A stretch of 64,000 nucleotides of DNA from Planctomycetota bacterium. Lineage in GTDB: Bacteria > Planctomycetota > UBA11346. The DNA lies in contig JANWWU010000078.1 of NCBI GenBank assembly GCA_025055595.1, positions 16,257 to 80,256 of the forward strand. The letters run 5' to 3'. Position numbers and translations under genes: made by a program. This document shows positions 8,487-42,423 of the stretch, piece after piece. The notes below the pieces were generated by a model. That model was given only the letters and a program-made list of their open reading frames with translations. It was not told where the DNA came from and made no database searches. Positions within the stretch are counted from its first letter, which is position 1, and each line of letters starts with the position of its first letter.

Positions 8487-8861
8487 TCAGCCCCCGATCA
8501 GCCCCAGCATCTCCAGCTTGGACTGGATCGCTTCCTTGGTGAACGGTTTCATCACATACTCGTCGGCGCCGGCGGCCAGCGCCTTGCTGATCTGCTCGGC
8601 TTCGGTCTCCGTCGTGCACATGACGATCTTCATCTGCTCGCTGCTGATGCGCGTCCGGGCCGCGACGACGAAGTCGTAGCCGTTCATCACCGGCATGTTC
8701 CAGTCGACCATCGCCAGCTGGAAGGGCCCGCGCTCGGCGAGCGCGGCCAGCCCCTCCTGGCCGTTGCCGGCCTGCACGCACTCCGCAAAGCCGAGCTCGG
8801 CGAGCGTGCGGCAGATGACGGAACGCACGGCGCGGGAGTCGTCGATCACCAGGGCGCGCAT
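8487..8861 (-). CDS. cheY: chemotaxis response regulator CheY (single-domain receiver)
   Basis: 124 aa. MRALVIDDSRAVR...LAMVDWNMPVMNG...IVMCTTE...YVMKPF. It is the first gene of the minus-strand che operon. Confidence 0.85.
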   Translation of the reverse strand: MRALVIDDSRAVRSVICRTLAELGFAECVQAGNGQEGLAALAERGPFQLAMVDWNMPVMNGYDFVVAARTRISSEQMKIVMCTTETEAEQISKALAAGADEYVMKPFTKEAIQSKLEMLGLIGG

Positions 8862-9001
8862 ACGGACTCCGGAAGACGACGCAGGTCGCTGGGCGGCAGC
8901 CTACCGGCGAAGGGACTCTTGGCAATCTTGATCGCGCGCTGACGCGCGCAGCGGCGCGCGCTCGCGGCTTGTGCGCTCGCCGGCGGCTCGAGGGTAGCGC
9001 C

Positions 9002-25057: not shown

Positions 25058-27613
25058 TCATGCCGGCCGATCCGCCGCCCCGAGCTGATCGGCGAAGCCG
25101 CGCCGCTGGTCTTGGGTCACGGCCTGGCGCAGGCGCTCCCAGTCGATCGGCTCGCCGGCGGCCAGGGCGCGCCGCGCGGCCTGAACCAGCAGCGCGTCGT
25201 CGCTGACCTCCGCCAGCTGCTGCAGCGCCTGCTCGGCCTCGGCGATCCGGCCTTCGCTTTGCAGCAGCTGCGCGGCATGACGGTAGCAGCGTGCCGCGGT
25301 GCGCCGGTCGCCGATGCCCGCTGTCGCCTCGGCGAGCGACAGTGCGTAGGCGGCGTCCTTGGAGTGCGCCGCAACCTGTGCGCTGAGCAGCGCGATCGCG
25401 TGCTCCATGTCGCCGGCGCCGAGCAGCTCGTCGAGCAGGGCCTGCACCGCCGCGCGCTCGCCGGCGGCATCGCCGGCCCGCCGCAGCAGCTCGATCAGCG
25501 CCATCGCTGCGTGGTAGCGCTCTTCCGGCGCCGCGAGGGCCAGGCGGCGCCGCGCCAGCTCGCTCGCCGTCCCGTAGTCCGCGCGCCGCGTCGCGAGGCG
25601 CAGCGCGTCCGCCACCGCCGCCGCCTCGCCCGGATCGTTGGCGTCGTGCAGCAGCTCGACCAGGCGCAGGCGCGTCGGCAGATCCTCGGGGCGCAGGGCG
25701 AGCAGCCGCGTCAGCGCCTCGGTCGCGGTCGCGAGATCGCCGCTGCCGCTGGCGAGGTCGGCGAGGTGCCGCAGCTCGCGCGCCGCGCGCCCGCGGTCGC
25801 CGGCGCGCAGCGCCAGCTCCGCGAGGCGTTGCCGCAGCGGGACGCTCGCCGGCGCGCGCTGCACCGCGGCCTGGGCGAGGCGCTCGGCGAACGCCTGCTG
25901 CCCGCTTTCGCGCGCCAGGTCGATCGCCCGGCACCAGGCGTCGATCGCCGCTTCGATCTGGCCGAGGCGTTCGTGCGCCGCCGCCAGCCGCGCCTGGATC
26001 TCGGCATCCTCGCCGCCGAGGACGACGATGCGCTCCAGGGTGCTGACCAGACCGATGTCGTCGCCCTCGCGCTCCTGGCGCTCGGCGACCAAGCGCAGCT
26101 GCTGCGTGGCGCGCTCGCTGTCGCGGCGGCGCGCGTAGGCCTTGGCGAGCCAGTCGTTGGCCTCGGAGTCCTCGGGGGCGGCCTTCGCCAGCAGCTCCCA
26201 GGCGGCGAGCCGCGCATCGTCCGCGACCTGCGTCGCCTGCGCCAGCGCGCGCCGCAGCAGCGCCGCGGCTTCACTGTGGCGGCCGGCAGCGAGCAGCAGC
26301 TCGGCGGCGGCACGCGCCGGCTCCAGCCGTTCGGGCTGCAGGGACGCCAGCGACAGCCAGGCCTGCAGGGCCTCCGCCTGGCGGCCGGCAGCCGCCGCCA
26401 GCCGCGCGCACTGCTCGTAGTGGATGGCGGCCTGCTCGTGGTCGCCGAGCGCCGCCGCGAGGCGACCGATCGCCATGCCGGTGACGACGGGATCGGCGCC
26501 GAGCTGCTGGCTCTCGCTGAGGACCTCCAGCGCGCGCGCGAGCATCCCGCGCTCCTCGTACCAGCGCACGAGGGCGAAGAGGGACTCCAGGGCGCGGCGG
26601 TCGTCGCCCTGCACGAGGTATAGCGATACGAGCTGGCCGAGGATCGGTTCGGGCGCCGCCCCGAGGCGCAGCGCGCGCTCAAGCGCCTGGATCTGGTCGC
26701 TGGCCGCCGTCGCCTGCTCGGCGGCGCTCAGGCAGTGCTGCGCAGCCTCCGCTGCGTTGCCAAGCTGCTCGGCGAGATCGGCGAGCTGCCAGCGCACGCG
26801 CAGCCCATCCTGCCCGAGGGCGACCGCGCGCTGCAGGATGCCGTAGGCGGTCGCCGGACGCGCGGCGCGCACCCGCTCGGCGAAGGCGACCAGCTCATTG
26901 GCCGCCGCCACCCGCAGGCAGTTGGCGCGTCGCAGCGCGACGACCGCGCGCTGCGCGCGAAACGGCGGCACCGCGGGATGATCGATCAGCTCGCGATAGA
27001 CCATCGCATGCCGGCAGCGCGCGAGGAGCTGCGCCGCGTCCTCGTCGCGACCGTCGTCATCGCCGATGCGGCACAGCACATCCCAGGGATCGGGGATCAG
27101 GTCGGCATTGCGCGCGCGCTCGTCCTGGCGGCGCAGGATCTCGAGCAGCAGCGCCGGTACCGCGATCAGCAGTCGAAAGCGGCGCTGGAAGTCGACGAAG
27201 GGATCGGCCGGCGCCTGCTCGACGATGTCAAACTCGGGCGCCGGCCAGCCGAGCACCTCATCGACTTCCTCGTAAGCGAGGATGGTCAGCGGCTCGAGCG
27301 CCGCCGATTCCGGCATGCCGGTCTCGGCGCAGACCCGCTGCCACACCGTCTCGGGGTCGGCCTCGGCGAGCTCGCGGCCGAGCCGCGCCAGCTCCTCGCT
27401 GGTGACGAAGCGCGCCCAGCCGATGGCACGCAGCCATCGCCCGCTTGGAACGCCGCCGATCGCCTGCAACCCGCCCTCGGCGAGGTACAGCCAACGGACG
27501 CCCTGCTCGCAGCGCACCTGCACGGTCGCCGCGCGCCGCGCCGCCGCCAGCGACTGCAGGACCGACGGCAGATCGACCCACGCCGAGACATTGACAGTCG
27601 CGCGCGATGGCAC
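25058..27613 (-). CDS. DUF4388 (N-terminal) plus multi-TPR repeat protein
   Basis: The N-terminus SAWVDLPSVLQSLAAARRAATVQVRCEQGVRWLYLAEGGL resembles the DUF4388 (PATAN-like) domain. The remaining roughly 750 aa are Ala/Leu/Glu-rich TPR-like helices. The track's M is a GTG. Confidence 0.7.
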   Translation of the reverse strand: MPSRATVNVSAWVDLPSVLQSLAAARRAATVQVRCEQGVRWLYLAEGGLQAIGGVPSGRWLRAIGWARFVTSEELARLGRELAEADPETVWQRVCAETGMPESAALEPLTILAYEEVDEVLGWPAPEFDIVEQAPADPFVDFQRRFRLLIAVPALLLEILRRQDERARNADLIPDPWDVLCRIGDDDGRDEDAAQLLARCRHAMVYRELIDHPAVPPFRAQRAVVALRRANCLRVAAANELVAFAERVRAARPATAYGILQRAVALGQDGLRVRWQLADLAEQLGNAAEAAQHCLSAAEQATAASDQIQALERALRLGAAPEPILGQLVSLYLVQGDDRRALESLFALVRWYEERGMLARALEVLSESQQLGADPVVTGMAIGRLAAALGDHEQAAIHYEQCARLAAAAGRQAEALQAWLSLASLQPERLEPARAAAELLLAAGRHSEAAALLRRALAQATQVADDARLAAWELLAKAAPEDSEANDWLAKAYARRRDSERATQQLRLVAERQEREGDDIGLVSTLERIVVLGGEDAEIQARLAAAHERLGQIEAAIDAWCRAIDLARESGQQAFAERLAQAAVQRAPASVPLRQRLAELALRAGDRGRAARELRHLADLASGSGDLATATEALTRLLALRPEDLPTRLRLVELLHDANDPGEAAAVADALRLATRRADYGTASELARRRLALAAPEERYHAAMALIELLRRAGDAAGERAAVQALLDELLGAGDMEHAIALLSAQVAAHSKDAAYALSLAEATAGIGDRRTAARCYRHAAQLLQSEGRIAEAEQALQQLAEVSDDALLVQAARRALAAGEPIDWERLRQAVTQDQRRGFADQLGAADRPA

Positions 27614-27656: not shown

Positions 27657-27998
27657 CTAGCGGCGGCCGCGGCGCCGGCGCCAGTAGCGCACGGCGAGCG
27701 GCTCACCGATCAGCTCGCGCACCAGCAGCGCATCGCGCACGCGCGCGCGGTCCATCAGCAGCTGGCGCAGCCGCGCCGCGACCGGCTCCGGCGGCGCGAC
27801 GATCGTCGCCGGAACCGCCGGACGGGCGGAGGCCGGCGCCAGCTCCGTCGCCGCCGGACGCGCGCGCGGCGCCTCGGCCGGCGGGCGCTCGGCGACATCC
27901 TCGGCGGACGGCAGCTCCGGCTCGCGCGACCGCTCCCGCGGCTCGGCCTCGCGCTGCAGCTCCTCGAGATCGCGCAGGATGTCGTCGAGCAGGGTCAC
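27657..27998 (-). CDS. small acidic hypothetical protein (113 aa) in the flotillin operon, at the position of yqfB in the B. subtilis yqeZ-floA-yqfB operon
   Basis: GTG start (verified by reverse-complementing the region) overlapping the floA stop. [22 protein letters not shown]... has normal composition with a Pro/Ala-rich middle. Confidence 0.45.
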
Positions 27999-29038
27999 GA
28001 CGGACCGGGCGTCTTCTCAGTCGGCTTGGGCTGTGGCGGATGTGCGATCGCCGTCCGCATCTCGGTGTCGGCCTGCAGGTTCTTCAGCATGTAGTAGTCC
28101 ATGATCCCGAGCTGGCCCTTGCGGAAGGCCTCGGCGATGGCGAGCGGGATCTCGGCCTCGGCGAGCACAACCTTGGCGCGGTTTTCCTGGACCAGGGCGA
28201 GCATCTCCTGCTCGCGCGCCACCGCCAGCGCGCGCTGCCGCTCGGCCTCGGCCTGCGCTACCCGCTTGTCAGCCTCGGCCTTGTCGGTGCGCAGGCGGGC
28301 GCCGACATTCTCGCCGACATCGACATCGGCGATATCGATCGACAGGATCGAGAAGGCGGTGCCGGCATCGAGCCCGCGCGCCAGCACCGTCTTCGAGATG
28401 CGGTCGGGATTCTCCAGCACCTCCATGTGGGTGCGCGCCGAGCCGATCGTCGTGACGATGCCCTCGCCGACGCGCGCGACGATCGTCTCCTCGGTCGCGC
28501 CGCCGACCAGGGTATCGATGTTGGTGCGCACGGTGACGCGGGCCTTGACCTTGAGCTGGATGCCGTCGCCGGCGATCGCATCGATCGTCGTGCGCCCGTC
28601 CTTCGGGCTCGGAACATCGATCACCTTCGGGTTGACCGAGGTCTGCACGGCATCGAGCACATCGCGGCCGGCGAGGTCGATGGCGCAGGCGCGATCGAAG
28701 GAGAGATTGATGTTCGCCTTGTTGGCGGCGATCAGGGCGTTGACCACGCGCATGACATGCCCGCCGGCGAGGTAGTGCGCCTCGAGGCGGTCGGTGCTGA
28801 TGTCGAGGCCGGCCTTCTTGGCGGTGATGCGCGCGGTGACGATCACCGTCGGATTGACCTTGCGGAAGCGCATCATGAACAGCTGCAGCAGGCTGACCGG
28901 GGCGTTGCTGGTCAGGGCCTGGAACCAGAGGCTGAACACCGAGGCGATCGCCATCACGATGGCGAGCACGATCGCGCCGATGACCAGCCAGACGATGGTG
29001 ACTAAATCGAACAAGGCGAGCGTCGTCAGGTACGGCAT
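27995..29038 (-). CDS. floA: flotillin-like protein FloA (SPFH domain, UPF0365/YqfA family)
   Basis: The internal Met [31 protein letters not shown] gives an N-terminal TM segment. This is followed by an SPFH core and a C-terminal coiled-coil [21 protein letters not shown]. The upstream 59 codons of the track ORF are junk. Confidence 0.85.
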
Positions 29039-29048
29039 GCAGTCCTCG

Positions 29049-29609
29049 TCAGGGATGGTGGTCGTCGTCAGGGAGCGCCATGACGTGTACCACCGGGCCA
29101 TCGAAGTCCAGGATGCGCACGCGCGCCCCGCGCCTGCCCCCGCCCTGCACCTGCACGTCGATGGCGACAGGGCCGCGGGGGCCAACGAAGCGCGCGCGTC
29201 CCGTCGGGTAGGCATCCGTCAGCAGCTCGCCCTCGGCTCCCGGACCGAGCCCTCCCTGGTCGGCGAGGCGGCGAGCCCCGGTCGCCTCCGTGATCTCCGC
29301 CGGCAGGACGAGCAGCGGGTGGCGCTGCATGCGTCGCAGGCCGAAGCGCAGGACGAGCGCAAGCAGCGCCGGCGCGACGACGACGAAGGCCCAGCCCGTC
29401 AGCGTCGAGACCTGAAAGGCCATGACGATGGCGACGACCGCGCTGATGGCCGCCGCGAGCGCCAGCATCCCCCAGCTGACGATGAAGCACTCGAGGACCG
29501 CGAGCACGCCAGCAAGCAGCAGCAGGGCCACCGCCCAGCCGAGGGCCGCCAGCGGCGGCAGACCGGGCGCCGCGCTGGTCGTCTCGGTCGCCAGCCAGGC
29601 CGGGATCAT
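29049..29609 (-). CDS. NfeD-like membrane protein, short form (YqeZ/YuaF-like flotillin partner)
   Basis: 186 aa. It has three TM helices, then an OB-fold-like C-terminus [47 protein letters not shown]. The ATG overlaps the stop of the long NfeD gene (ATGA). Confidence 0.75.
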
Positions 29610-31111
29610 GCGCGCGCTTCCGCCTCGACCGGGCGGACGACGAGCTCGCCGAGCTGGGCGCCGACGATCTCGACCTCGCTGTCGGCCGGCACCAGCACGC
29701 CGTGCTCGGCGACCGCCGGTACATCCCGGCCATCGATGATGACGAAGCCGCTTGGGCGCAGCATCGTCCGCGTGCGCACGCGCTTGCCGATCAAGGCTCG
29801 GGCCTGCTGTTCGAGGTCCCCGGCGGTCGTCGCATCGATCGCCGCCTCGCTCGCCAGCACGCGCATCGCGCGGGTTCGCGGCAGGGCGGCGATGGCGACG
29901 ATGGCGCCGATCGTCAAGACGGTCAGCGCCAGCAGGCTCTGGATCAGGGCATGGCCCATCGCGCCGCGCCAGCGCTCGTCGCCGATCTCGAACTGGAAGG
30001 AGTCGGGCATGAAGGCGAAGATCATGCCGCCGCCGATCGCGAGCAGGCCCGCGATCAGCAGCAGGCCGCCAGTGGGGAAGAGGAAGAACTCGGTGATCAG
30101 GGCCAGGATGCCAAACGCGATCAGGATGATCTCGGCGGCCCCGACGAGGTCGAGCCAGTACTGGCAGACGAGGAACAGCAGGCCGCAGACTGCGGCGCCG
30201 ATCAGGAAGAGGCCGCCGCTCGGCATCTTGAACTCGAGCAGCAGCAGCAGCAGCGCGAGGCCGGCCAGCAGCGGCGCCCAGCCGCCGAGGGTCTCGGCGA
30301 TCAGCTCGTGGCGACTGGGCAGAAAGCGCTGCACCGCGCTCGGCTCGACGCCGAGCAGGCGGTAGACCTCGTCGAGGTCCTTGACCAGCGCCGTCGCCAT
30401 CCCCTCGGCGACGGCTTCCTTGGCCGTGTAGGTCAGCAGGCGATCCTTGCCGAGGATCAGCACGCCGTCCTCCTTGCGCAGGCCGGGGCGGGCGGCGAGA
30501 AAGGCCGGCAGATCGTCCTCGATCACGAAGTGCTGCCGACCGTCGATGTCGAAGCGCCACAGCTCCTGATTGCGCGCGGTCATCTTCTGCAGCTTGGCCT
30601 GGTCCCAGCCATTGTGCTGGCCGGCCTGGCGCAGCAGGGCGCGGACGGGGCTCTCCAGCTTCTCCGGGGCGTACTTGATCGGCTCCGCCGGGTCCTGGCT
30701 GACAAAGATGACGCCGATGTCCCCGATGTAGGCCTGATCGGTCATGTAGATGCGGCGGTGCCCGTAGGCGAGCAGGGCGCCGGCGCTGTAGGCGCGCGTG
30801 TCGATGAAGGCGATCAGCTCGGTGTCTTCGTCGCCGACGGCGAGGATGCGTTCGAGCATGCGCATCGCCGCGTCGAGGGCGCCGCCGTCGGTGGCGATGC
30901 GGCAGACGATGTAGCGCGGGCTGAGCGCCAGCGCGCGATCGACGGCGCGCTCGAACTGCCCGGCGCGATGGTCATCGATCGCGCCGTCGATCGGGATGAA
31001 GGCGACGAGCGGCTTCCCGCCGGCGCCCTGGCCGCCAGCAGGCGTGGCTTCCCCGCCTTGCCCGAACGGCGCGACAGCAACCAGCAGCAGGCCTAGCAGC
31101 CAGTGCAGCAT
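29606..31111 (-). CDS. NfeD-like membrane-bound serine protease (ClpP-class), long form
   Basis: Signal peptide MLHWLLGLLLVAVAPFG. A ClpP/crotonase-like protease domain (IVCRIATDGGALDAAMRM, SAGALLAYG). A multi-TM region and a C-terminal OB-fold. Confidence 0.8.
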   Translation of the reverse strand: MLHWLLGLLLVAVAPFGQGGEATPAGGQGAGGKPLVAFIPIDGAIDDHRAGQFERAVDRALALSPRYIVCRIATDGGALDAAMRMLERILAVGDEDTELIAFIDTRAYSAGALLAYGHRRIYMTDQAYIGDIGVIFVSQDPAEPIKYAPEKLESPVRALLRQAGQHNGWDQAKLQKMTARNQELWRFDIDGRQHFVIEDDLPAFLAARPGLRKEDGVLILGKDRLLTYTAKEAVAEGMATALVKDLDEVYRLLGVEPSAVQRFLPSRHELIAETLGGWAPLLAGLALLLLLLEFKMPSGGLFLIGAAVCGLLFLVCQYWLDLVGAAEIILIAFGILALITEFFLFPTGGLLLIAGLLAIGGGMIFAFMPDSFQFEIGDERWRGAMGHALIQSLLALTVLTIGAIVAIAALPRTRAMRVLASEAAIDATTAGDLEQQARALIGKRVRTRTMLRPSGFVIIDGRDVPAVAEHGVLVPADSEVEIVGAQLGELVVRPVEAEARA

Positions 31112-31322
31112 GCACCTACCCTAAATCGCCAGCGGCCCGCACAAGGCAGCCGCCGCCTGACATCCGTCAGCAGCTCAGGAGGCGAAGAGGTTGCCGCTGG
31201 TCGCGGCGTTCGGAGCGCTGAGCTCGCTGAGCTCGACCACGCAGAAGATGCCGGCGACGATCAGCGCGATGCAGGAGATGATCACCATCCAGAGGTAGAT
31301 CTTGTCGCTCAGCATGGGGGTC

Positions 31323-32207
31323 TCACAGGCGGTTGGCGGCGAGATCGCCGGCCTCGATGGTCAGCCCGCTGGTGTTCCACGACGAGGGGATGACGCGCGC
31401 CGGCGCCATATCGTTGAGGACGCGCTCGACGCGCACCTTGCAGATGTACTGGTTGCCGCGGTAGACGATGAACTCCTGCCCGACCTGCACGCCTTCTTCG
31501 CGCCCGATCGACAGAATGACGAACTCCTGCTCGCCCTTGCTGTTGACCTGCACGGCCGCGACGCGCGCATGCAGGGCGGCCGTGCTCGGCTGCTCGTAGT
31601 GGATCGCCTCGTAGACCTTCGGGAAGCGTTCGCGCAGCACCGCCAGCCGGGCCTCGGCCTGCTTGCGTTCCGCGATGCTCTTGTCGAGCTGCTCGCGCAG
31701 CCGCGCGTACTCGGTCTGCAGGTTGTTGAGGTCGTCCTCGACTTCGGCGAGCTTGACATTGAGGTTGAAGGCGACGGCGCGCGCCACCTGCGCGATGTGG
31801 GTCAGCTCGCTGTTGCGCTGCCGCACCATATCGAGCGACTTGCTCTGCGCCTGGTAGTTCTCGTTCAGGGCGCTGTAGTCGGTGCGCATGCGGTCAAGGT
31901 CGCGCTCGAGCGCTTGGATGCGCGCCACGCGCTCGGTGATCTGCGCCTCGAGCTCGCGGATCTTCGCCTGGTCGCGATCGCGGTCGATCTGCAGCTGCGC
32001 GACCTGGTTCTCGGCCCGGACGCGGCCTGCGGACTCGGTGGCCAAAAGCTGCGTCGCCTGCTTGAGCTCGGCGGCCAGGCTCTTGGTATCCTGGTCCCAG
32101 CGCCGCTTCCAGTTCTCGCGCGTCGCGAACAGCATCATCTGGACGATCATGAAGGCGACGGTCAGGACGAGCAGGACGAGGATGAAGATGCGCAGGGCGA
32201 GGCTCAT
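31323..32207 (-). CDS. membrane-anchored coiled-coil protein with a C-terminal beta-rich domain; hypothetical
   Basis: MSLALRIFILVLLVLTVAFMIVQMM is a TM segment. It is followed by about 180 aa of heptad-rich sequence and then ...VQVNSKGEQEFVILSIGREEGVQVGQEFIVYRGNQYICKVRVERV. Confidence 0.6.
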   Translation of the reverse strand: MSLALRIFILVLLVLTVAFMIVQMMLFATRENWKRRWDQDTKSLAAELKQATQLLATESAGRVRAENQVAQLQIDRDRDQAKIRELEAQITERVARIQALERDLDRMRTDYSALNENYQAQSKSLDMVRQRNSELTHIAQVARAVAFNLNVKLAEVEDDLNNLQTEYARLREQLDKSIAERKQAEARLAVLRERFPKVYEAIHYEQPSTAALHARVAAVQVNSKGEQEFVILSIGREEGVQVGQEFIVYRGNQYICKVRVERVLNDMAPARVIPSSWNTSGLTIEAGDLAANRL

Positions 32208-32243
32208 GCGTGCAAGGCTCCCATGAATCGAAAGGCGTGGCGG

Positions 32244-34646
32244 TCACTCATCGACGGCACCCGCGGTGCGCGCCTCGATGCCGTAGCGCTGATGCTCCTG
32301 GAACTCGGCGTAGAGCTCCACCGGCACCCCGGCGGCGGCGCCGAAGCCGCCGCTGGCGGCAGCGCGCACCCCGGCATCGCTGTGCTGCATCGCCTTCTTC
32401 AGGATGTCGACGGCGGCGCGTGACGTCGGATCGATGCGGCCGATGGCGAAAACGAAGGCTGCGCGCAGCGCTGGATCGCTCTCCAGTTCGGCATCTTGGG
32501 CCTGATAGATCTCGGTGATGCGGGCGATGTGGGCGCGCGCCGCCTCGCCGGCCGGGCCGGCGGCGATCCGCGCCAGCGCGCGCAGCGCCGCGCTGCGGAT
32601 CGCGTTGGAGCGCGCCGGCAGGGTCTCGACCAGCGCCGCGACCGCGCCGCCGAGGTCGAGCGGCGTGCGCCGCGGGTCGGGCTGCTGCAGGGCGAGCGCC
32701 GCGCGCAGGGCGATGTCCTCGGCGACCGCCTGCTGAGCATGCGGCGGCGGCGCGTCCTTGAGCGCGGCGTCGATCGCATCGCGCAGCTCGACCGCGTCAT
32801 AGGGACGGCCGACGAACTTGCTCGCCGGCCGCCGCGCGACGAACTCCGCCCGCACCTTGTCGGCCTGCTCGGGCTGCTCGGGCAGGGCGACGAAGATCGG
32901 TACACCGGCGGCGCGCGGATCGGCGCCCAGCATGTCGATCAGCCCGGCAGCGTTCTGCTGCGGAACGTCGAGCTCGGCGCCGTTGTGGTCCTTGACGGCA
33001 GTCTTGAGGTCGCCGGCGACGATGATCGCATCCTTGAGCGGTCCCGAGGCCAGGCGGTTGAGCGCCTCGAAGCCATCGGCCGCTGTGATCGCGACGAAGC
33101 CCTTGCTGGTCAGCGCCGCGCGCGCGGCATTGCGCGAGCGGGGATCGGGATCGACGACGAGGACCACGCGCATGCCCCAGGCCCCGAGGGCTTCGGCGAG
33201 CAGGGGCACCACCTTCTCGGCGCCAGGGAAGGCATCGGGATCGAGGCTCGCCAGCGTGATCGCGGCCTGATAGCGGATCAGCTTGTCGGGGTGCTCGAGC
33301 GCGGTGATCAGCACGGTGCCTGGCTTGGCCGGGGACAACGGCTCGTTGGCTGCCGGGAACAAGGGCTTGCCGTGCACGAGCTCGCGCTCGGCGAGCACCC
33401 GCATCAGCACCAGCGCCGCATCGTGACGCTCGGAGGCCAGCGCCTGCTGCAAGGCGCGGCAGAGGTTCTCGGCCCCCGACATCCGCAAGCGCTGCTGCAG
33501 CTCGGCGAGCGCGGTGGCCCGCGCCGAGAGGCGCTCGAGGGCGTCCTCGCCGCTAGCCGGGGCCAGCGTGCGCTCCTGCGCTAGCAGCGAGCGCTCGACG
33601 ATGTCCGCCAGCTCGCCGGCATAGACCGCCGTCAGCACCGGCAGGAAGCCGGCCTCGCCCGGCTCGACCGCCATCCCCGCAAACAGCAGGTCTTCGGCCA
33701 TCAGCTCGTTCCAGGCGTAGGATGGCGCGCGCGTCCAGGCCAGGCGGGCCGCGCCCTCGGCTTGCGGATCCCAGCGCCACAGCAGGCGCTCGGCGGCGAT
33801 CATCTCGTCGCGGATCTCCGGACCGCCACGGAAGTAGCGGAGGGCCTCCGCGATGTGCGCTTCGGACAGCGTCGGCACTTCGGGCAGCTGGGCGCGCTGA
33901 ACGATCTTCTCGATCGCCCGATCGATCGCCTGCATCGTCACCGGCGCCAAGCCTTCGCGCAGCCGCACGCGCAGCAGGGCCGGCAAGGCCCGCGGGTCGC
34001 CGATATCGCCGAGGATCAGCGACACCGAGCCGATCTGCCGCTGGTCATCGCTGCTCAGCGCCGCGGTCAAGGGCAGCACGGCGCGCGCGCCCATCCGCGT
34101 CAGCACCAGGCGGCACTGGCTGCGGCGCCGCTCCTGGGGGTTGTCGGTCAGCGCCCAGACGAGCTCGGGCACCGCCCACGGGCCGACAGCAGTCAGCTCG
34201 CGCATCGCCGCGATCTGCTCTTCCTCGCTCTGCTCGAGCTTGCCGATCAGGATGCGGATGTACGCCGGATCGCGCCGCAGCTGCTTCTGGTAGATGCGCG
34301 CCCGACGCAGCAGCTCCTTGAGCGGCTCGGCCAATGGGTCCTGCTCCTGCATCTGCAGAATCAGCGCATCGCCGCAGGCGAGGTAGAACTCGTAGGCGTC
34401 TTTATTGTCGGGCTCGAGGGCGAGGGCGGTGCGGAAGGCCAGGGCGGCCTCACGATAGCGGCCGGCGCGATACTGCTTGACGCCCTCGGCGAGGTACGAG
34501 CGCACCTGATCGGCGACCGGGAAGTGCGGATCGGCCCGTCGCGGGCTCGCTTCGCCGGCCGCCAGCGGCGCCCCGAGCAGAGCCGCTAGCAAAGCCGGAA
34601 CCAGGGCGCGCGACAACGACCCAGGCGCTACACGCAACGAACGCAT
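32244..34646 (-). CDS. secreted/membrane-anchored HEAT-repeat (PBS lyase-like) protein with an embedded degenerate receiver-like domain
   Basis: 800 aa from the internal Met MRSLRVAPGSLSRALVPALLAALLGAPLAAGEA (signal-like). This Met is preceded 5 nt upstream by GGAGG. The upstream 707 codons of track ORF 32244..36767 have low GC3 and overlap real plus-strand genes. The REC-like segment is MRVVLVVDPDPRSRNAARAALTSKGFVAITAADGFEALNRL...AIIVAGDLK...IFVALP...KFVGRPYD. Confidence 0.7.
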   Translation of the reverse strand: MRSLRVAPGSLSRALVPALLAALLGAPLAAGEASPRRADPHFPVADQVRSYLAEGVKQYRAGRYREAALAFRTALALEPDNKDAYEFYLACGDALILQMQEQDPLAEPLKELLRRARIYQKQLRRDPAYIRILIGKLEQSEEEQIAAMRELTAVGPWAVPELVWALTDNPQERRRSQCRLVLTRMGARAVLPLTAALSSDDQRQIGSVSLILGDIGDPRALPALLRVRLREGLAPVTMQAIDRAIEKIVQRAQLPEVPTLSEAHIAEALRYFRGGPEIRDEMIAAERLLWRWDPQAEGAARLAWTRAPSYAWNELMAEDLLFAGMAVEPGEAGFLPVLTAVYAGELADIVERSLLAQERTLAPASGEDALERLSARATALAELQQRLRMSGAENLCRALQQALASERHDAALVLMRVLAERELVHGKPLFPAANEPLSPAKPGTVLITALEHPDKLIRYQAAITLASLDPDAFPGAEKVVPLLAEALGAWGMRVVLVVDPDPRSRNAARAALTSKGFVAITAADGFEALNRLASGPLKDAIIVAGDLKTAVKDHNGAELDVPQQNAAGLIDMLGADPRAAGVPIFVALPEQPEQADKVRAEFVARRPASKFVGRPYDAVELRDAIDAALKDAPPPHAQQAVAEDIALRAALALQQPDPRRTPLDLGGAVAALVETLPARSNAIRSAALRALARIAAGPAGEAARAHIARITEIYQAQDAELESDPALRAAFVFAIGRIDPTSRAAVDILKKAMQHSDAGVRAAASGGFGAAAGVPVELYAEFQEHQRYGIEARTAGAVDE

Positions 34647-34650
34647 CGGG

Positions 34651-34655
34651 CCTCC
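34651..34655 (-). promoter_or_regulatory. Shine-Dalgarno-like GGAGG, 5 nt upstream of the ATG of the HEAT-repeat gene
   Basis: The minus-strand sequence reads tacGGAGGcccgATG. Upstream of it the frame loses GC3 bias. Confidence 0.4.
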
Positions 34656-34808
34656 GTACTGCAGATCCAGGCGTATGGTTCGAAGTGGCATCGTGCGTGT
34701 CCCTTCCGGCGGCATCAACCCCTGCGCGCGCCAGCGTGCGCGAAGTGTATGACGAGCCCGCGACGCCGCCGCGTCTTGCACCCCCGCTGCCCGGTCAAGA
34801 TACGCGCC

Positions 34809-35705
34809 ATGCCGCGTCGAGAAGGGCAGTCGACGGGGTGGCGGTGGACGCTGGCCCTCTGCGCGCTGCTGGCCGGCGTCGGCCTCAGCCTCTTCGCGCT
34901 GGCCCTCCGCCCGTGCCGCTTCGTCATCGAGCCTGGGGAGTCCGTGGCCTGGGAGCTGACGGTTCGCTCCGCCGCCAGCGGCGAGGCGACGGCCGCGGCA
35001 CGCGCCACCCGCATGGTGATCCGACTGCTCGGGCTGGGCCCGGAGCCCGAAGCGGTCGCCTGGTTCGCTGGGCCGAGCGCGGAGCGGGCCAGCGCCTTCC
35101 ACCTCGCGATGCTGCCCGTCGACGGGGCGCTGCGCCTGCGCACGCCCGAGGGGCGCATCGCGTTGAGCGGGCCCCACTGCCTGGGCTTCGACTTCAACCT
35201 GCTGCCGCTGCCGCCGGGGGCGGAGCAGAGCTGGCGCGCGAGCGTCGTCTGGGCGCCCTTGCCGCCAGACAAGCAGCTGGTGCCGGTCGAGGTCCGCCGC
35301 CTGCGCGCCAACGCTTGGCCCGAGTTCCGCTGCCTGTTTCCGCCGAGCATCGAGTGGGTGGATCCGCACAGCGGACGCTATCGGCAAGTGCGGGGTCTCG
35401 CCGCCACCTACCGCTTCGATACGCTGCGCGGGCTGCCGGTGTGGGCGCTCGTGCGCTGGACGTTGCGCGAGGAGCTGCCGCCGCCGCAGGGCTTCGCGTC
35501 CCGCGACTACGAGTGCGAGCTGCGCTTCCTCGAGCGGCGGAGGCATGGGGAGCCGGCGGCGCTGCGGCAGGCCGCGGCCCTCGCCCAGCGCGTGCACGAG
35601 GCGCGAGCCGCCGGCCAGCGCCCGGCGCTCGCCTGGCTCGCCGCCCTGCAGGCCGCCGGCGAGCCGTTCGCCTCCCTCGCCGGCGCGAGCCCGGAGCGCC
35701 TCTGA
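34809..35705 (+). CDS. hypothetical secreted protein (298 aa)
   Basis: Internal Met MPRREGQSTGWRWTLALCALLAGVGLSLFALAL (signal-like). It is divergent from the HEAT-REC gene. The stop abuts the ATG of the next gene. Confidence 0.55.
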   Translation: MPRREGQSTGWRWTLALCALLAGVGLSLFALALRPCRFVIEPGESVAWELTVRSAASGEATAAARATRMVIRLLGLGPEPEAVAWFAGPSAERASAFHLAMLPVDGALRLRTPEGRIALSGPHCLGFDFNLLPLPPGAEQSWRASVVWAPLPPDKQLVPVEVRRLRANAWPEFRCLFPPSIEWVDPHSGRYRQVRGLAATYRFDTLRGLPVWALVRWTLREELPPPQGFASRDYECELRFLERRRHGEPAALRQAAALAQRVHEARAAGQRPALAWLAALQAAGEPFASLAGASPERL

Positions 35706-36776
35706 ATGCGCTGGGCAGTGGCGCTGCTGATGCTGGCGGCGCTCTCCGCCATGGAACGCGCGATCATCGACGATCCGCGACTGGCGCTCGACTGGCTGCC
35801 GGATCGCCCGTCCCAGCAGGCCTGGCGCGCGCTGTTCGATCCGCATGCGGTGTGGCCCGAGCGCGATGTCGACCTGCTGGCGAGCGCTCACGGCGAGCGG
35901 TTGACGACCTTGTGGGCCGCTCGCCTGTGGTACCGCGGCGAGCCGTGGACGCGGCGCGAGCACGAGCCGATCAACCTGCGGCGCTGGCGCGTCGTCGACC
36001 GCGCCGTGCGCCTGGCGATCATCCGCGACCTGCGCTGGCGGCGCGATCCGCGCCTCGTCGCGGTGCTGCTCGGCTTCCTGCAGCGCGAATCCGAGGACGT
36101 CGGCCTGGTGGTCAACGCCCTGGCCGCGCTGTCGCTGATCGACCCGCCCGCCGGACGCCAGGCGGCGCTGCGCCTCGCCGATCCGCGTCGCCCCGATCGC
36201 CTGCCAGCCGCCGGCCTGCCGGGGGCCCGCAGCGCGGCCCTCGCCCTCGCCCTGGAGAGCGGGCCGCTCGACGAGCCGCTGCAGGCCGCGCTCTCCTGGG
36301 CCCTGCTGACCGCCGACGGCGGCGAGCGCATCGCCGCCCTCGGCCGGCTGCCGCGCGGCGCGGTCCCCGAGCTGTGCGGTGCGGCGCTGCAGCGCCTGCT
36401 CGAGCCCGCGCAGCGGGGCGCGCTGCGCGACGAGGATCTCGCGGCCGGGGTGCTGATCTGCGCGCGCCTCGAGGGCCCGCTCGGCGAACGCGTGCTGCAG
36501 GCGCTGGGCACGCTGGCGGTGGCGGCGCCGCGCGAGCTCGCCTGCGCCGCCGCCACCGCCTTGGCGCGCGTCGTCAGCTGGCGCCACGCGATCGATCCCC
36601 AGCCCCTGCTCGAGCGCTTCCAGCGCGACCCCGATCCCTCGGTGCGGCACGCGTTGGCCGCGGCCCTGGTGCGCATCGCTCCCGATCGCCTGGCGTCGCG
36701 CCGCGAGGCCGCGGCCTGGGCGGTGCTCGCAGCCCACCGCCTGGCCCTGCAGGACTGGGACTGGCATCGCCCATGA
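35706..36776 (+). CDS. secreted HEAT-repeat protein
   Basis: MRWAVALLMLAALSAMERA is signal-like. It is followed by repeated Ala/Leu-rich HEAT-like helical pairs. The stop overlaps the rsmB-like ATG. Confidence 0.6.
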   Translation: MRWAVALLMLAALSAMERAIIDDPRLALDWLPDRPSQQAWRALFDPHAVWPERDVDLLASAHGERLTTLWAARLWYRGEPWTRREHEPINLRRWRVVDRAVRLAIIRDLRWRRDPRLVAVLLGFLQRESEDVGLVVNALAALSLIDPPAGRQAALRLADPRRPDRLPAAGLPGARSAALALALESGPLDEPLQAALSWALLTADGGERIAALGRLPRGAVPELCGAALQRLLEPAQRGALRDEDLAAGVLICARLEGPLGERVLQALGTLAVAAPRELACAAATALARVVSWRHAIDPQPLLERFQRDPDPSVRHALAAALVRIAPDRLASRREAAAWAVLAAHRLALQDWDWHRP

Positions 36777-37744
36777 ACAACGAGGAGGCGCTGCCCGCCG
36801 CCTTCGTCGCCCTGCTGCGCGAGATCGCTGGCGACGCCGCCGAGCAGGTGCTCGCCGGCTGCACCGGCGACCGCTGCCCGGCCTTCCGCGCCAACACGCT
36901 GAAGGCCGGACGGCGCGCGCTGTGCCGGGAGCTCGCGCAGGCCGGCATCGTCTACCGCCCCCATCCGCTCTCGGACTGGTCGTTCACCACCACCGCGGAG
37001 GGCGAGGCGCGGCTCAAGGCCAGCGCGCCCTACGCTGCGGGCTGGGTGTACAGCCAAGGCCTGGCCAGCCAACTGCCGGCCATCCTGCTGCCGCTGTCGT
37101 CTGGCGTGCGCGTACTCGATGCCTGCGCCGCTCCCGGCGGCAAGACCACCCTGCTGGCGATGCGTCTCGGCAACGGCGGCGCCGGGATCACGGCCTGCGA
37201 TCGCGCGCCCGGCCGCTTCGCGCAGCTGCTGCATACCCTGCGGCTGCTCGGCGCGCACCGCGTGCAGGCACTGCGCTGCGACATGCGGCGGCCGCCGCCG
37301 GCGATCGCCGCCGAGCGCTGGGACCGCGTGCTCGTCGACGCGCCCTGCTCGGGCAGCGGCACCGTCCGCCTCGATCGGCCGGCGACCTGGCAGCGCCTCA
37401 GCTTCGACTACGAGGGCTATGTCGCGTCGCGCGTGCGCATCCAGACCGCGCTCGTCGAGCGCGCGGCGGCCCTGCTCGCCCCCGGCGGCCTGCTGCTCTA
37501 CAGCACCTGCTCGCTCGATCCGCGCGAGAACGAGGGCGTCGTGCGCCACCTGCTGCACCTGCGCGCGCCGCTCGAGCCGCTCGACCTGTCGCGCTGGGCC
37601 AAGCCCTTCGGAGCCAGCGCCGGACCGGGCCTGCGCCGCTTCCGCGATCAGGAGTACGGCGAGTTCGCGGCGGCCTGCCTGCGCCTGTGGCCGTGCCGCG
37701 AGCACGAGGGCTTCTTCGTCGCCCTGCTGCGCCGTCGGCGCTAG
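36773..37744 (+). CDS. rRNA/tRNA cytosine-C5 methyltransferase, NOL1/NOP2/Sun (RsmB/RsmF) family
   Basis: SAM motif DACAAPGGKTT, the catalytic PC in DAPCSGSGT, and the TC in LYSTCS. It has 323 aa and no NusB-like N-terminal domain, so it is more RsmF-like than RsmB. Confidence 0.8.
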   Translation: MNNEEALPAAFVALLREIAGDAAEQVLAGCTGDRCPAFRANTLKAGRRALCRELAQAGIVYRPHPLSDWSFTTTAEGEARLKASAPYAAGWVYSQGLASQLPAILLPLSSGVRVLDACAAPGGKTTLLAMRLGNGGAGITACDRAPGRFAQLLHTLRLLGAHRVQALRCDMRRPPPAIAAERWDRVLVDAPCSGSGTVRLDRPATWQRLSFDYEGYVASRVRIQTALVERAAALLAPGGLLLYSTCSLDPRENEGVVRHLLHLRAPLEPLDLSRWAKPFGASAGPGLRRFRDQEYGEFAAACLRLWPCREHEGFFVALLRRRR

Positions 37745-38829
37745 CGCTCTTCCCAGGGCAGGCCGAGGACCTCGGCGACCGCGCGCGCCTTGTCGCGCGC
37801 TTCCTGCCACTCCTGCGCGGGGTCGCTGTCGGCGACGATGCCGCCGCCTGCGCGCAGCCACAGCGTCGCGCCGGCGATCTCGACGGTGCGAATCGCGACC
37901 GCCAGCTCGCAGCCACCGCCGGCCAGCCGCCCATAGGCCCCGCACCAGTGGCCGCGCGACGCGCCCTCGAGGGCGGCGATGTGCCGCATCGCCGCGCGCT
38001 TGGGCGCCCCGGTGATCGAGCCGGCGGGGAAGCAGGCCGCGATCACCGCCGACAGCGGGGTCCCCGGTCGCAGGCGGGCCGAGACCTGCGCCAAGCGGTG
38101 GTGCAGGTGCGGCAGATCGACGACGGAGCCGGGATCATCGACGCGCACGCCGCCCGGCACCGCGACGCGCCCGAGGTCGTGGCGGCAGAGATCGACGATC
38201 ATCGCCAGCTCCGCGCGCTCCTTCTCGCTGGCCGCCAGCTCGGCGCGCACCGCCGCCTCCTCGCCGCGCCGGCGGCGGCGCGTGCCCTTGATCGGACGCA
38301 TCGTCGCGACCCCGTCGCGCACCGCCAAGAAGAGCTCCGGGCTGTTGCCGACGATCGCCGGCCCCGCGCCGCCGCGCAGCAGGCAGGCATAGGGCGCGGG
38401 ATCGCGCGCGCGCAGCGCCAGATGCAGGGCGACATCGGGGCAGGGATGCGGGGCCAGCGCGATGCGCCAGGTGCAGCCGAGGTTGAGCTGGTAGACCTCG
38501 CCGGCGGCGATCGCCGCCTGCGCCGCCCGCACCCGCGCGCGATGGCCCTCGCCGTCCCACGCCGCGCTGCAGGACAGCGCGCGCGGCGGCTCGAGCATGC
38601 TCGCTCCCGCCAACGGATAGGAGGAGGCGGCGCTCAGATCCCAGGCCCGGCCCGGCTCCTGCGGGAAGCCGTAGGGCAGCGCGATGAACCAGGCTCCGTC
38701 CCGGTCGAGATCGCTCCACGCCCGCAGCGGCCGCGGCTCGCCGAAGGCCACCCATCCCTGCTCGCCCTGCACCCAGGCCGCGCCGGCTTCGTCCGCCGCC
38801 GCCAGCAGGGCCTCCTCGTAGCTGCTCAC
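37741..38829 (-). CDS. chorismate-binding enzyme (aminodeoxychorismate synthase component I PabB-like / TrpE family, short form)
   Basis: PIKGT and SITGAPKRAAMRHIAALEG...RG.YGG are chorismate-utilising enzyme signatures. There is a 4-nt convergent overlap with the rsmB-like gene. Confidence 0.7.
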   Translation of the reverse strand: MSSYEEALLAAADEAGAAWVQGEQGWVAFGEPRPLRAWSDLDRDGAWFIALPYGFPQEPGRAWDLSAASSYPLAGASMLEPPRALSCSAAWDGEGHRARVRAAQAAIAAGEVYQLNLGCTWRIALAPHPCPDVALHLALRARDPAPYACLLRGGAGPAIVGNSPELFLAVRDGVATMRPIKGTRRRRRGEEAAVRAELAASEKERAELAMIVDLCRHDLGRVAVPGGVRVDDPGSVVDLPHLHHRLAQVSARLRPGTPLSAVIAACFPAGSITGAPKRAAMRHIAALEGASRGHWCGAYGRLAGGGCELAVAIRTVEIAGATLWLRAGGGIVADSDPAQEWQEARDKARAVAEVLGLPWEER

Positions 38830-41219: not shown

Positions 41220-42383
41220 TCAACCCAGGCGCCGCTTGTAGTCGTCATAGGAGAACTGGCGCAGGATCCGCAGCTCACGGCCGTCCCAGGTGGCGAGCGC
41301 CGGATGCTTGACGCCATTGAACATCGTCGTCTTGACCATCGTGTAGTGCGCCATGTCGGCGAAGACCAGGCGCTGGCCGACGCGCAGCGGCTCGGCGAAC
41401 GACCAGTCGCCGATGACATCGCCAGCGAGGCAGGTCGGGCCGCCGAGACGATAGGTGTAGGGCAGCACGCCGGGCGCGGCCGCGCCGTGGATGGTCGGCC
41501 GATAGGGCATCTCCAGGACATCCGGCATGTGCGCGGTCGCCGAGACATCGAGCACCGCGATCGCCATGCCGTTGCGCAGGACATCGAGCACGCTGGCGAC
41601 CAGCACCCCGGTGCCGAGCGCGATCGCCTCCCCGGGCTCGAGGTACACGGTGAGCTGCGGGTAGCGCGCGCGCAGAGCGCGGATGCTGGCGATCAGGGCC
41701 TCGACATCGTAGTCGGCGCGCGTGATGTGATGGCCGCCGCCGCAGTTCAGCCAGCGCACGCGCGGCAGCCAGTCGCCGAAGCGGCGCTCGACGGCGGCGA
41801 GCACGCGCGCGAAGACATCGGCTCCCTGCTCGCACATCACATGGAAATGCAGGCCGTCGACGCCCGGCGGCAGCTCGTCGCCGAACTCAGCACGGATCGT
41901 GCCGAGCCGGCTGCCGGGGACGCAGGGGTTGTAGAGCGCGACCTCGATCTCGGCGTACTCGGGATTGATGCGGATGCCGACCTCGCGGCGCTCGGGATAG
42001 GCGCGCACCGCCGGCAGGTGCCGCGCCAGCTGGCTCGGCGAGTTGAAGATCAGGTGATCGGAGACGGCCAGCGATTCCGCCAGGTCGCGATCGCTGAAGG
42101 CCGGCGCATAGGTGTGGACTTCCTTGCCGAACTCCTCGCGCGCCAGCCGCGCTTCGTAGGGGCCCGAGGCGGCGCAGCCGTCGAGCCAGGGCCGCAGGAC
42201 GGGGAAGACCGGCCACATCGCGAAGCCCTTGAGCGCGGCGAGGATCCGGCAGCCGGCAGCGCGGCGCACCCGATCGAGCAGGCGGGCATTGCGCTCGAGC
42301 AGCCGCAGGTCGACGACGAAGCAGGGGCTCGGCAGCGCCTCCCAATCGAGGTCGTGGATCGGCGTCTCGGGGATCGGATGCAT
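41220..42383 (-). CDS. nspC: carboxynorspermidine/carboxyspermidine decarboxylase
   Basis: 387 aa. The N-terminus ...SPCFVVDLRLLERNARLL matches the NspC TPxYVxDE..L pattern, and the fold is a PLP-dependent decarboxylase-like fold II. Confidence 0.85.
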   Translation of the reverse strand: MHPIPETPIHDLDWEALPSPCFVVDLRLLERNARLLDRVRRAAGCRILAALKGFAMWPVFPVLRPWLDGCAASGPYEARLAREEFGKEVHTYAPAFSDRDLAESLAVSDHLIFNSPSQLARHLPAVRAYPERREVGIRINPEYAEIEVALYNPCVPGSRLGTIRAEFGDELPPGVDGLHFHVMCEQGADVFARVLAAVERRFGDWLPRVRWLNCGGGHHITRADYDVEALIASIRALRARYPQLTVYLEPGEAIALGTGVLVASVLDVLRNGMAIAVLDVSATAHMPDVLEMPYRPTIHGAAAPGVLPYTYRLGGPTCLAGDVIGDWSFAEPLRVGQRLVFADMAHYTMVKTTMFNGVKHPALATWDGRELRILRQFSYDDYKRRLG

Positions 42384-42423
42384 CGGTTGATGCAGTTGAC
42401 CGGCCGAGGGCAGCGCACAAGCC

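Follow-up and report, generated by a model that had tools for sequence, protein, structure and literature searches.

A degenerate receiver fold between the HEAT repeats of a predicted exported protein family of Planctomycetota

Introduction

Two-component signalling in bacteria is defined by a cytoplasmic phospho-switch, the receiver (REC) domain. Such domains bind Mg2+ in an acidic pocket, normally serve phosphorylation signalling and are otherwise cytoplasmic. Some have left this chemistry behind, such as the receiver domain of FrzS from Myxococcus xanthus (PDB 2gkg), which we take to be a pseudo-receiver; FrzS is itself cytoplasmic, and its receiver is fused to a coiled coil. What, then, is a receiver-like segment doing in the middle of a HEAT-repeat protein that begins like an exported one? 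To our knowledge, no ATP-driven phosphorelay is to be expected in the periplasm, and a literature search for receiver domains that are exported or located in the periplasm, or for HEAT repeats combined with a receiver in Planctomycetes, returned nothing relevant. The question is raised by an 800-aa protein encoded within a 64,000-nucleotide stretch of a Planctomycetota contig, hereafter the window. This article describes the limits of its gene, its architecture, the state of its receiver pocket and its conserved genomic company, and weighs what such a protein might do.

An 800-aa protein within an over-long reading frame

The gene occupies positions 32244..34646 of the minus strand, stop codon included, at the end of an open reading frame that would encode 1507 aa. 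The gene is supported by GC3 frame analysis, by homologues and by an AlphaFold2 model. Codon-position GC indicates that the minus strand is coding between 32244 and about 34650 (GC1/2/3 = 0.77/0.49/0.895), while the upstream extension (34647..36767, minus strand) gives 0.92/0.57/0.795, the pattern left on the antisense strand by two plus-strand genes at 34749..35705 and 35706..36776 whose own GC3 values are 0.93 and 0.92. The homologues stop short of this extension, and the N-termini of 58 of them line up at the start methionine of the 800-aa protein (ATG at 34646..34644). The initial annotation was thus right to treat the upstream 707 codons as non-coding, although its statement that GC3 “collapses” there overstates a shift from 0.895 to 0.795. 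It also placed a GGAGG ribosome-binding site 5 nt before the ATG; the motif is there (34651..34655, minus strand), as read from the sequence, but the spacer is 4 nt. The locus illustrates how far a track of open reading frames can overextend when the genome has about 72% GC.

Public data contain an identical protein (P0001) and some 90 full-length homologues; the family considered below has 58 members. The wider superfamily comprises 485 clusters at E<=1e-30, and every named source is a Planctomycetota metagenome-assembled genome (MAG). No specific Pfam or NCBIfam model covering the 800-aa protein was found.

A solenoid of TPR-like and HEAT repeats

Two repeat regions make up most of the protein. 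The N-terminal alpha-solenoid, TPR-like at first and then made of HEAT repeats, spans residues 44-488 (33183..34517, minus strand) and is supported by Pfam, the predicted model and PDB matches; it contains a Trp-rich beta-hairpin at residues 288-306. The C-terminal HEAT repeats cover residues 637-794 (32265..32738, minus strand), are helical in the model and include the best HEAT_2 stretch, at residues 722-764. Pfam HEAT_2 (PF13646) scores 44.7 bits (cut-off 27.7) and matches all 58 family members, and Pfam HEAT is also matched in the N-terminal solenoid. TPR_2, at residues 50-81, scores 20.7 bits, under its cut-off of 27; 33 of the 58 members have it at E<=0.01. The AlphaFold2 model of the protein (pLDDT 88.9) shows an all-helical solenoid, and among AlphaRep/HEAT hits in the PDB alphaRep designs are matched with E-values down to 6e-14. 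The HEAT-repeat build proposed from the sequence is therefore upheld by a profile match above cut-off together with a helical solenoid model.

The repeat units resemble those of PBS-lyase/HEAT-like proteins (PF13646; alphaRep), whereas the likeness to CAND1 or karyopherin solenoids is only generic: a Foldseek search of the PDB with the full-length model returned generic alpha-solenoids alone (CAND1, karyopherins, SF3b) at uninformative TM-scores of 0.21 or less. The co-linear TPR-HEAT-REC-HEAT layout is that of no known HEAT family.

A predicted signal peptide

The protein starts MRSLRVAPGSLSR / ALVPALLAALLGAPLAAG / EASPRR. Its first 31 residues (34554..34646, minus strand) are predicted to be a Sec-type signal peptide, with an n-region carrying three arginines, the h-region ALVPALLAALLGA and the c-region PLAAG, followed by E; residues 1-33 are unstructured in the AlphaFold2 model (pLDDT <50). 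The same n-h-c layout is common to the 58 family members. The export call combines this conservation with a heuristic of our own, which asks for a positively charged n-region, an h-region of about 10–15 residues, a c-region whose residues -3 and -1 are small, and a mature part that opens with a net negative charge. It was applied to the 58 homologues and to 104 superfamily representatives; 89 of the 104 passed, and the eight cytoplasmic proteins of the window that served as controls failed. Neither a lipobox nor a twin-arginine motif was seen in the N-termini of the homologues, and export as a lipoprotein or by the Tat route was rejected for that reason. The signal-like start noted from the sequence thus proves to be a family trait, and the 800-aa protein is probably exported.

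A receiver fold with an altered pocket

Between the two repeat regions lies a degenerate receiver fold (residues 493-631, 32754..33170, minus strand), recognised in predicted models and by profile matches. The fold is the doubly wound (beta-alpha)5 arrangement, and DSSP on both predicted models places a beta-hairpin insertion at residues 548-559 (32970..33005, minus strand), between strand 3 and helix 3. Canonical CheY-like receivers (PF00072) lack this 12-residue insert, and HMMER alignments to CheY-type profiles open a gap of about 12 residues there. Taken alone, the query scores 14.3 bits against PF00072 (E=0.047), below the cut-off of 30.2; 42 of the 58 family members match at E<=0.01, the best at 1.6e-7, and the family profile matches PDB receivers at E=4e-8. 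The CheY-like alpha/beta segment suspected from the sequence is thus a REC fold, homologous to receivers and embedded between HEAT repeats.

Its signature residues, as they read in the alignment, are degenerate. The key positions in the query are D499, P500, D501, A544, G545, D546, A587 and R614, and the altered residues that had been pointed out earlier are borne out: Pro stands at the equivalent of CheY D13, Ala at that of T87 and Arg at that of K109. Where CheY ends strand 1 with an acidic pair (D12, D13), the query has D499, then P500 and D501. Position 500 is Q in 31, P in 21, E in three, A in two and G in one of the 58 members, and never Asp as in canonical receivers. D499, in turn, is D or E in all 58, and D501 is kept in 57. 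The initial annotation had suggested a check for the phospho-acceptor Asp, and the outcome is mixed. Strand 3 (residues 540-544) ends in Ala544 in both models, and by this reading the acceptor position would be Ala or Ser in the family; an Asp stands two residues on, at 546, and is kept in 48 of the 58 members (83%), with Glu in five more, while two of the sequences without D546 have D544 instead. Family consensus has Ser at 587 (48/58, 83%) and Lys at 614 (51/58, 88%); the query is a more degenerate member of a family that keeps S and K at the T87 and K109 positions. Next to the pocket is a conserved motif of basic and polar residues, DxDYRxRN.

Among 67 representatives of the wider superfamily, positions 544, 546, 587 and 614 are all variable, with mostly Leu at 587 and a mixture at 614; the conserved residues are D539 (67/67), N506 (57) and D501 (46). 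It is because the phosphorylation positions are not conserved at this breadth that the domain is called a pseudo-receiver. No histidine kinase gene adjoins the HEAT-REC gene in the window or in the three close-family loci for which called genes are listed (L001-L003). On these residues, phosphorylation of the embedded domain seems unlikely.

A conserved three-gene operon

The initial annotation had drawn attention to the divergent upstream neighbours and had proposed a comparison of neighbourhoods across Planctomycetes. This comparison moved the focus to the other side of the gene: the upstream genes turned out to be incidental, and the conserved context lies downstream.

Thirty-six nucleotides past the HEAT-REC stop begins a gene for a 294-aa coiled-coil protein (31323..32207, minus strand). 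It has an N-terminal TM helix with an invariant juxtamembrane motif, RENWKRRW, then a long coiled coil, and ends in a domain of about 90 residues. Of 44 loci, 42 have its gene 3' of the HEAT-REC gene, at a distance of 19-93 nt, and in the other two the contig ends first. The 248 homologues are almost all 294 aa long. Searches with Pfam, NCBIfam and PDB profiles assigned the protein to no known family, yielding only coiled-coil noise and a sub-threshold FlgT_C. Four to five K/R directly follow its TM helix, which by the positive-inside rule would make the bulk of the protein cytoplasmic and so separate it by the membrane from HEAT-REC, and this weakens the picture of a simple binary complex. 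Seven nucleotides past the coiled-coil stop comes a gene for a 46-aa single-TM miniprotein (31175..31315, minus strand; GC3 0.957, GC1 0.47, GC2 0.43), and a homologous TM reading frame of 39-52 aa occupies the same place in 36 of the 39 loci that have a full-length partner gene. The HEAT-REC gene is thus the first of a conserved three-gene operon, whose products bear generic automatic names without specific annotation. A promoter and terminator scan of 30900-34900 found nothing. NfeD was considered as a further member and dropped; it pairs with the downstream FloA flotillin gene and is not syntenic elsewhere.

The divergent neighbours are present much as first described. One encodes a 318-aa protein that has a hydrophobic segment close to its N-terminus (34749..35705, plus strand) and no Pfam match; the other, which abuts it at TGAATG, encodes a 356-aa HEAT-like protein with a signal-like N-terminus (35706..36776, plus strand) whose HEAT_2 match, at 25.6 bits, stays below threshold. 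BLASTP between the 356-aa and 800-aa proteins was not significant, so they are not paralogues. Neither gene is conserved beyond the closest subclade: the pair lies beside the HEAT-REC gene in L004, L006 and L038 only, and was rejected as a functional partner on this ground. Other loci have a GHMP kinase gene upstream of the HEAT-REC gene. Four distant superfamily members (P0097, P0099, P0236 and P0263) have neither the coiled-coil partner nor a common neighbourhood, and two of them have an Orn/DAP/Arg decarboxylase gene upstream. Most neighbours of the HEAT-REC gene are housekeeping genes and give no functional clue.

Discussion

The reading that we prefer is that of a Sec-exported periplasmic alpha-solenoid of TPR-like and HEAT repeats, in which a receiver domain inserted between two HEAT repeats would have lost the conserved phosphotransfer chemistry; it would no longer be a phosphorylation switch but a rigid module with an interaction or conformational role. 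Together with its operon partners, the membrane-anchored 294-aa coiled-coil protein and the 46-aa membrane miniprotein, it may build a complex with a structural or scaffolding part to play, located at the cytoplasmic membrane and in the periplasm of these Planctomycetota. On this view the three products would interact physically, in a scaffold role. As a whole, we hold this account to be somewhat better than an even bet. FrzS is built differently: here the pseudo-receiver would be enclosed by an exported solenoid, and the coiled coil belongs to a distinct membrane protein whose gene lies downstream.

Could the pocket still work, as a site for a small ligand? D499, D501 and D546 might bind a divalent cation or another periplasmic ligand, the occupancy of which would switch the solenoid and make the protein a periplasmic sensor. 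The narrow family keeps four of the five canonical positions fairly well (at 499, 546, 587 and 614), more than one would expect if the module were purely structural, and this would allow for the binding of a metal or a ligand. D501 is nearly always kept too; the sequences with D544 in place of D546 suggest that an acidic residue is selected for where strand 3 ends, and the DxDYRxRN motif lies beside the pocket. In the query itself, however, three of the five positions hold Pro, Ala and Arg, and the pocket is not conserved across the superfamily, so that we regard a working ligand site as rather unlikely. The protein might instead be an ordinary response-regulator-like protein tethered in the cytoplasm by an uncleaved anchor, its receiver phosphorylated by an unlinked histidine kinase. 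Receivers are cytoplasmic by general rule, the uncharged N-terminal stretch (median 18 residues) is borderline for a TM helix, and the genome encodes canonical Che proteins, so that phosphodonors exist. Yet an N-out/C-in anchor needs the reverse of the charges seen here, K/R before the segment and D/E after it; an AxA-type site with a helix-breaking P or G in the c-region is present in most sequences, and the pocket and the lack of an adjacent kinase, described above, speak against phosphorylation; such a tethered regulator is improbable. Finally, the likeness to receivers could be convergence on a generic flavodoxin-like alpha/beta fold, or the gene call an artefact of GC-rich DNA, given that the query alone stays under the PF00072 threshold and that long spurious reading frames arise in GC-rich genomes, as at this very locus. 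The family matches to PF00072 and the profile match to PDB receivers refute this, and we give it practically no weight.

What does the family mean for these bacteria? Hundreds of clusters in which a receiver lies behind an export signal, its acceptor chemistry lost, would amount to reuse of the fold in the periplasm, and the solenoid-REC protein, the TM coiled-coil protein and the miniprotein are together a three-gene module conserved within an uncultured clade of Planctomycetota. The boldest version of the idea, which we think unlikely, is a large and hitherto undescribed family of receiver domains working outside the cytoplasm, where the pocket would be a cation- or ligand-controlled switch in a Planctomycetota-specific envelope machine with the coiled-coil protein and the miniprotein; if true, this could bear, for example, on envelope architecture or on FtsZ-independent division. 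Since the envelope and division machinery of Planctomycetota is still poorly understood, the module gives studies of localisation and structure something concrete to aim at.

Gene Limits and Predicted Fold

The HEAT-REC gene (32244..34646, minus strand) encodes an 800-aa HEAT-repeat protein with an embedded receiver-like (REC) domain. With a GC content of ~72-75%, the window carries many long spurious ORFs, and real genes were told from these by codon-position GC. On the minus strand, coding extends from 32244 to ~34650 (GC1/2/3 of 0.77/0.49/0.895 for 32247..34646), while the upstream 707 codons of the 1507-aa ORF (34647..36767; 0.92/0.57/0.795) mirror the pattern of two plus-strand genes, 34749..35705 (GC3 0.93) and 35706..36776 (GC3 0.92). 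The start codon is the ATG at 34646-34644, with a GGAGG at 34655-34651, and the N-termini of 58 homologues line up on it. Because codon-position GC, start site and N-terminal alignment all agree, the gene model of the initial annotation, an 800-aa product behind 707 non-coding codons, is correct, although its wording that GC3 “collapses” is somewhat too strong for a fall of this size. A second over-extended ORF (34685-37744, plus strand, 1019 aa) is coding only in its last ~350 codons (from ~36700), which encode an RsmB/F-type 16S rRNA cytosine-C5 methyltransferase; it converges with a PabB-like gene (37741-38829, minus strand), their ends overlapping by 4 nt.

In an AlphaFold2 model of the full-length chain, built from a 58-sequence alignment (pLDDT 88.9, pTM 0.77), a disordered N-terminus (residues 1-33) precedes a helical solenoid (44-488), a (beta-alpha)5 domain (493-631) and further HEAT repeats (637-794). 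Inserted in the N-terminal solenoid is a small Trp-rich beta-hairpin (residues 288-306, window 33729-33785, minus strand; LLWRWDP...LAWTRAP, then YAWNELMAE). Across the 58 homologues W290, W312 and E318 are invariant in this region and W292 nearly so. The hairpin is a candidate binding site.

A Family of Planctomycetota Proteins

The product has an identical counterpart, annotated as hypothetical, in a Planctomycetota metagenome-assembled genome (MAG). It has ~90 full-length homologues (39-78% identity), several of which carry the automatic names “CheY-like chemotaxis protein” or “HEAT repeat protein”; all those with a source name come from Planctomycetota MAGs. Several family MAGs (loci L007, L026, L028, L030, L034, and L037) have as their record title “Candidatus Kuenenia stuttgartiensis” or “Brocadiaceae,” though they derive from lake or mixed metagenomes, so that either the family reaches into Brocadiia or these titles are unreliable. 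A family-profile HMMER search of the whole database yielded a superfamily of 485 cluster representatives at E<=1e-30. The top 150 listed are mostly co-linear proteins of ~700-900 aa, and the 10 looked up are from Planctomycetota MAGs or metagenome assemblies. Neither Pfam nor NCBIfam holds a specific model covering the family, and neither exported or periplasmic receiver domains nor the HEAT-REC architecture came up in a full-text search of open-access papers.

A Receiver Fold with a Degenerate Phosphorylation Site

In the window protein itself, Pfam reports HEAT_2 above threshold, a sub-threshold TPR (residues 50-81), and Response_reg at only E=0.047 (residues 495-536). PF00072 nevertheless matches 42 of the 58 family members at E<=0.01 (best 1.6e-7), and a profile built on the REC segment only (alignment A2) matches 91 PDB sequences at E<=0.01, led by CheY (4e-8); among the 60 matches listed, all are receivers except one de novo protein. 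Conversely, a three-sequence HMM (CheY/Spo0F/PhoB) recovers family members at E ~1e-9. As judged from these profiles, receiver homology at the family level is solid, and together with the modelled (beta-alpha)5 domain it bears out the embedded receiver fold first proposed.

The altered acidic pocket and substituted signature residues noted initially are also seen. Strand 1 ends in V-V-D499-P500-D501, with Pro at the CheY D13 position. Ala544 closes strand 3 (540-544); G545 and D546 come next, and a 12-residue beta-hairpin (548-559) is inserted ahead of helix 3. Strand 4 ends at Ala587 (T87 position), and Arg614-Pro615 follows strand 5 (K109 position). Within the 58-member family, position 499 is D in 48 and E in 10; position 500 is Q (31) or P (21) and never D; 501 is D in 57; 544 is A (41), S (14) or D (2); 546 is D (48) or E (5), with five others; 587 is S (48) or A (9); and 614 is K (51) or R (6). 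The two sequences with D544 are without D546. Compared with its subfamily, which retains Ser at the T87 position, Lys at the K109 position and a displaced Asp, the window protein is more degenerate; this partial retention in the subfamily leaves room for metal or ligand binding. Among the 67 superfamily representatives whose REC segments align well, positions 544, 546, 587, and 614 are variable while D539 (67/67), N506 (57), D501 (46), and R505 (45) are kept, which marks the domain as a pseudo-receiver. What selection maintains is the fold together with a motif specific to the family (DxxxRN plus D539), not the canonical phosphotransfer quintet. The contrast with ordinary receivers is visible within the window, where a chemotaxis receiver scores 78.5 bits to PF00072 and the HEAT-embedded domain 14.3 bits. 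The window has a canonical chemotaxis run (6322-8870, minus strand) of CheR (6322-7164), CheB with a bona fide receiver (7146-8486), and stand-alone CheY (8490-8870).

Predicted Export

Export was judged at the level of prediction, by explicit heuristics on charge, uncharged stretch and end motif. Ahead of the hydrophobic segment, the 58 homologues carry a mean of 2.0 K/R and 0.1 D/E. The uncharged stretch spans 13-28 residues (median 18), commonly has P or G close to its end, and closes in most sequences with a small-x-small motif (AHA, AFA, AAA, LAA); the next 15 residues hold 3.8 D/E vs. 1.4 K/R. The character of the segment is conserved and its sequence poorly so, as is typical of signal peptides. 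The signal layout recurs in 89 of 104 superfamily representatives, whereas none of the eight cytoplasmic window proteins taken as controls passes. Neither a lipobox nor a twin-arginine motif was seen. At this heuristic level, the signal-like start originally described holds. A cytoplasmic domain behind a transmembrane (TM) anchor, named earlier as the reading that would overturn export, finds no support: the charge asymmetry runs the opposite way and predicts a protein body located outside the cytoplasmic membrane, irrespective of cleavage of the segment.

Genomic Context

The divergent plus-strand neighbors, described initially as a secreted protein and a second HEAT protein, are present (318 aa, 34749..35705, no Pfam match; 356 aa, 35706..36776), but HEAT_2 is only sub-threshold in the latter, which is ruled out as a paralogue of the 800-aa protein, and the pair adjoins the HEAT-REC gene in L004, L006, and L038 alone, the three closest loci. 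In loci L001-L003 the upstream position is taken by a GHMP kinase gene. The two genes abut in the same frame as TGA ATG (35700-35710), which suggests that their translation is coupled; the pair resembles one 675-codon frame broken by a single stop.

What is conserved lies downstream, on the strand of the HEAT-REC gene itself. A partner gene for a 294-aa protein (31323..32207, minus strand) follows in 42 of 44 loci, after gaps of 19-93 nt, and the remaining two contigs end first. Its product has an N-terminal TM helix and an invariant RENWKRRW motif, along with ~170 residues of coiled coil and a C-terminal domain of ~90 residues; nearly all of its 248 homologues are exactly 294 aa long, and Pfam, NCBIfam and profile searches matched it to no known family. 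A single-TM ORF of 39-52 aa comes next in 36 of the 39 loci where the partner gene is full-length, here a 46-aa miniprotein gene (31175..31315, minus strand, GC3 0.957). In the window the two gaps measure 36 and 7 nt. The module looks like a three-gene operon. NfeD (29606..31111) was rejected as a further member: its pairing is with a FloA flotillin gene that comes after it, and its synteny with the module does not extend to other genomes. This classic pair (27995-31111, minus strand; NfeD1b_N, membrane and C-terminal domains, then FloA) lies directly downstream of the module, and beyond it an 844-aa protein (25058-27592, minus strand) combines an N-terminal DUF4388 domain with TPR repeats. 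Distant superfamily members have no coiled-coil partner gene at their loci. An Orn/DAP/Arg decarboxylase gene lies upstream on the same strand of two of them, P0097 and P0236 (L045 5540-6832 and L048 1179-2462), and another is found in the window (41223-42392, minus strand), ~6.5 kb from the HEAT-REC gene, which may be a synteny remnant or chance.

Proposed Role

In the best-supported reading, the HEAT-REC protein would be a periplasmic solenoid scaffold working with the membrane-anchored coiled-coil protein and the miniprotein, with its pseudo-receiver as an unphosphorylated interaction or conformational module. Confidence in this scaffold is limited because export is a prediction, pocket residues are partly kept, and the K/R-rich stretch after the partner's TM helix suggests, by the positive-inside rule, a cytoplasmic coiled coil, which would lie across the membrane from the predicted position of the HEAT-REC body. 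Pseudo-receivers are already known as a kind; what would be new is the context, solenoid-embedded, predicted to be exported and apparently extracytoplasmic.
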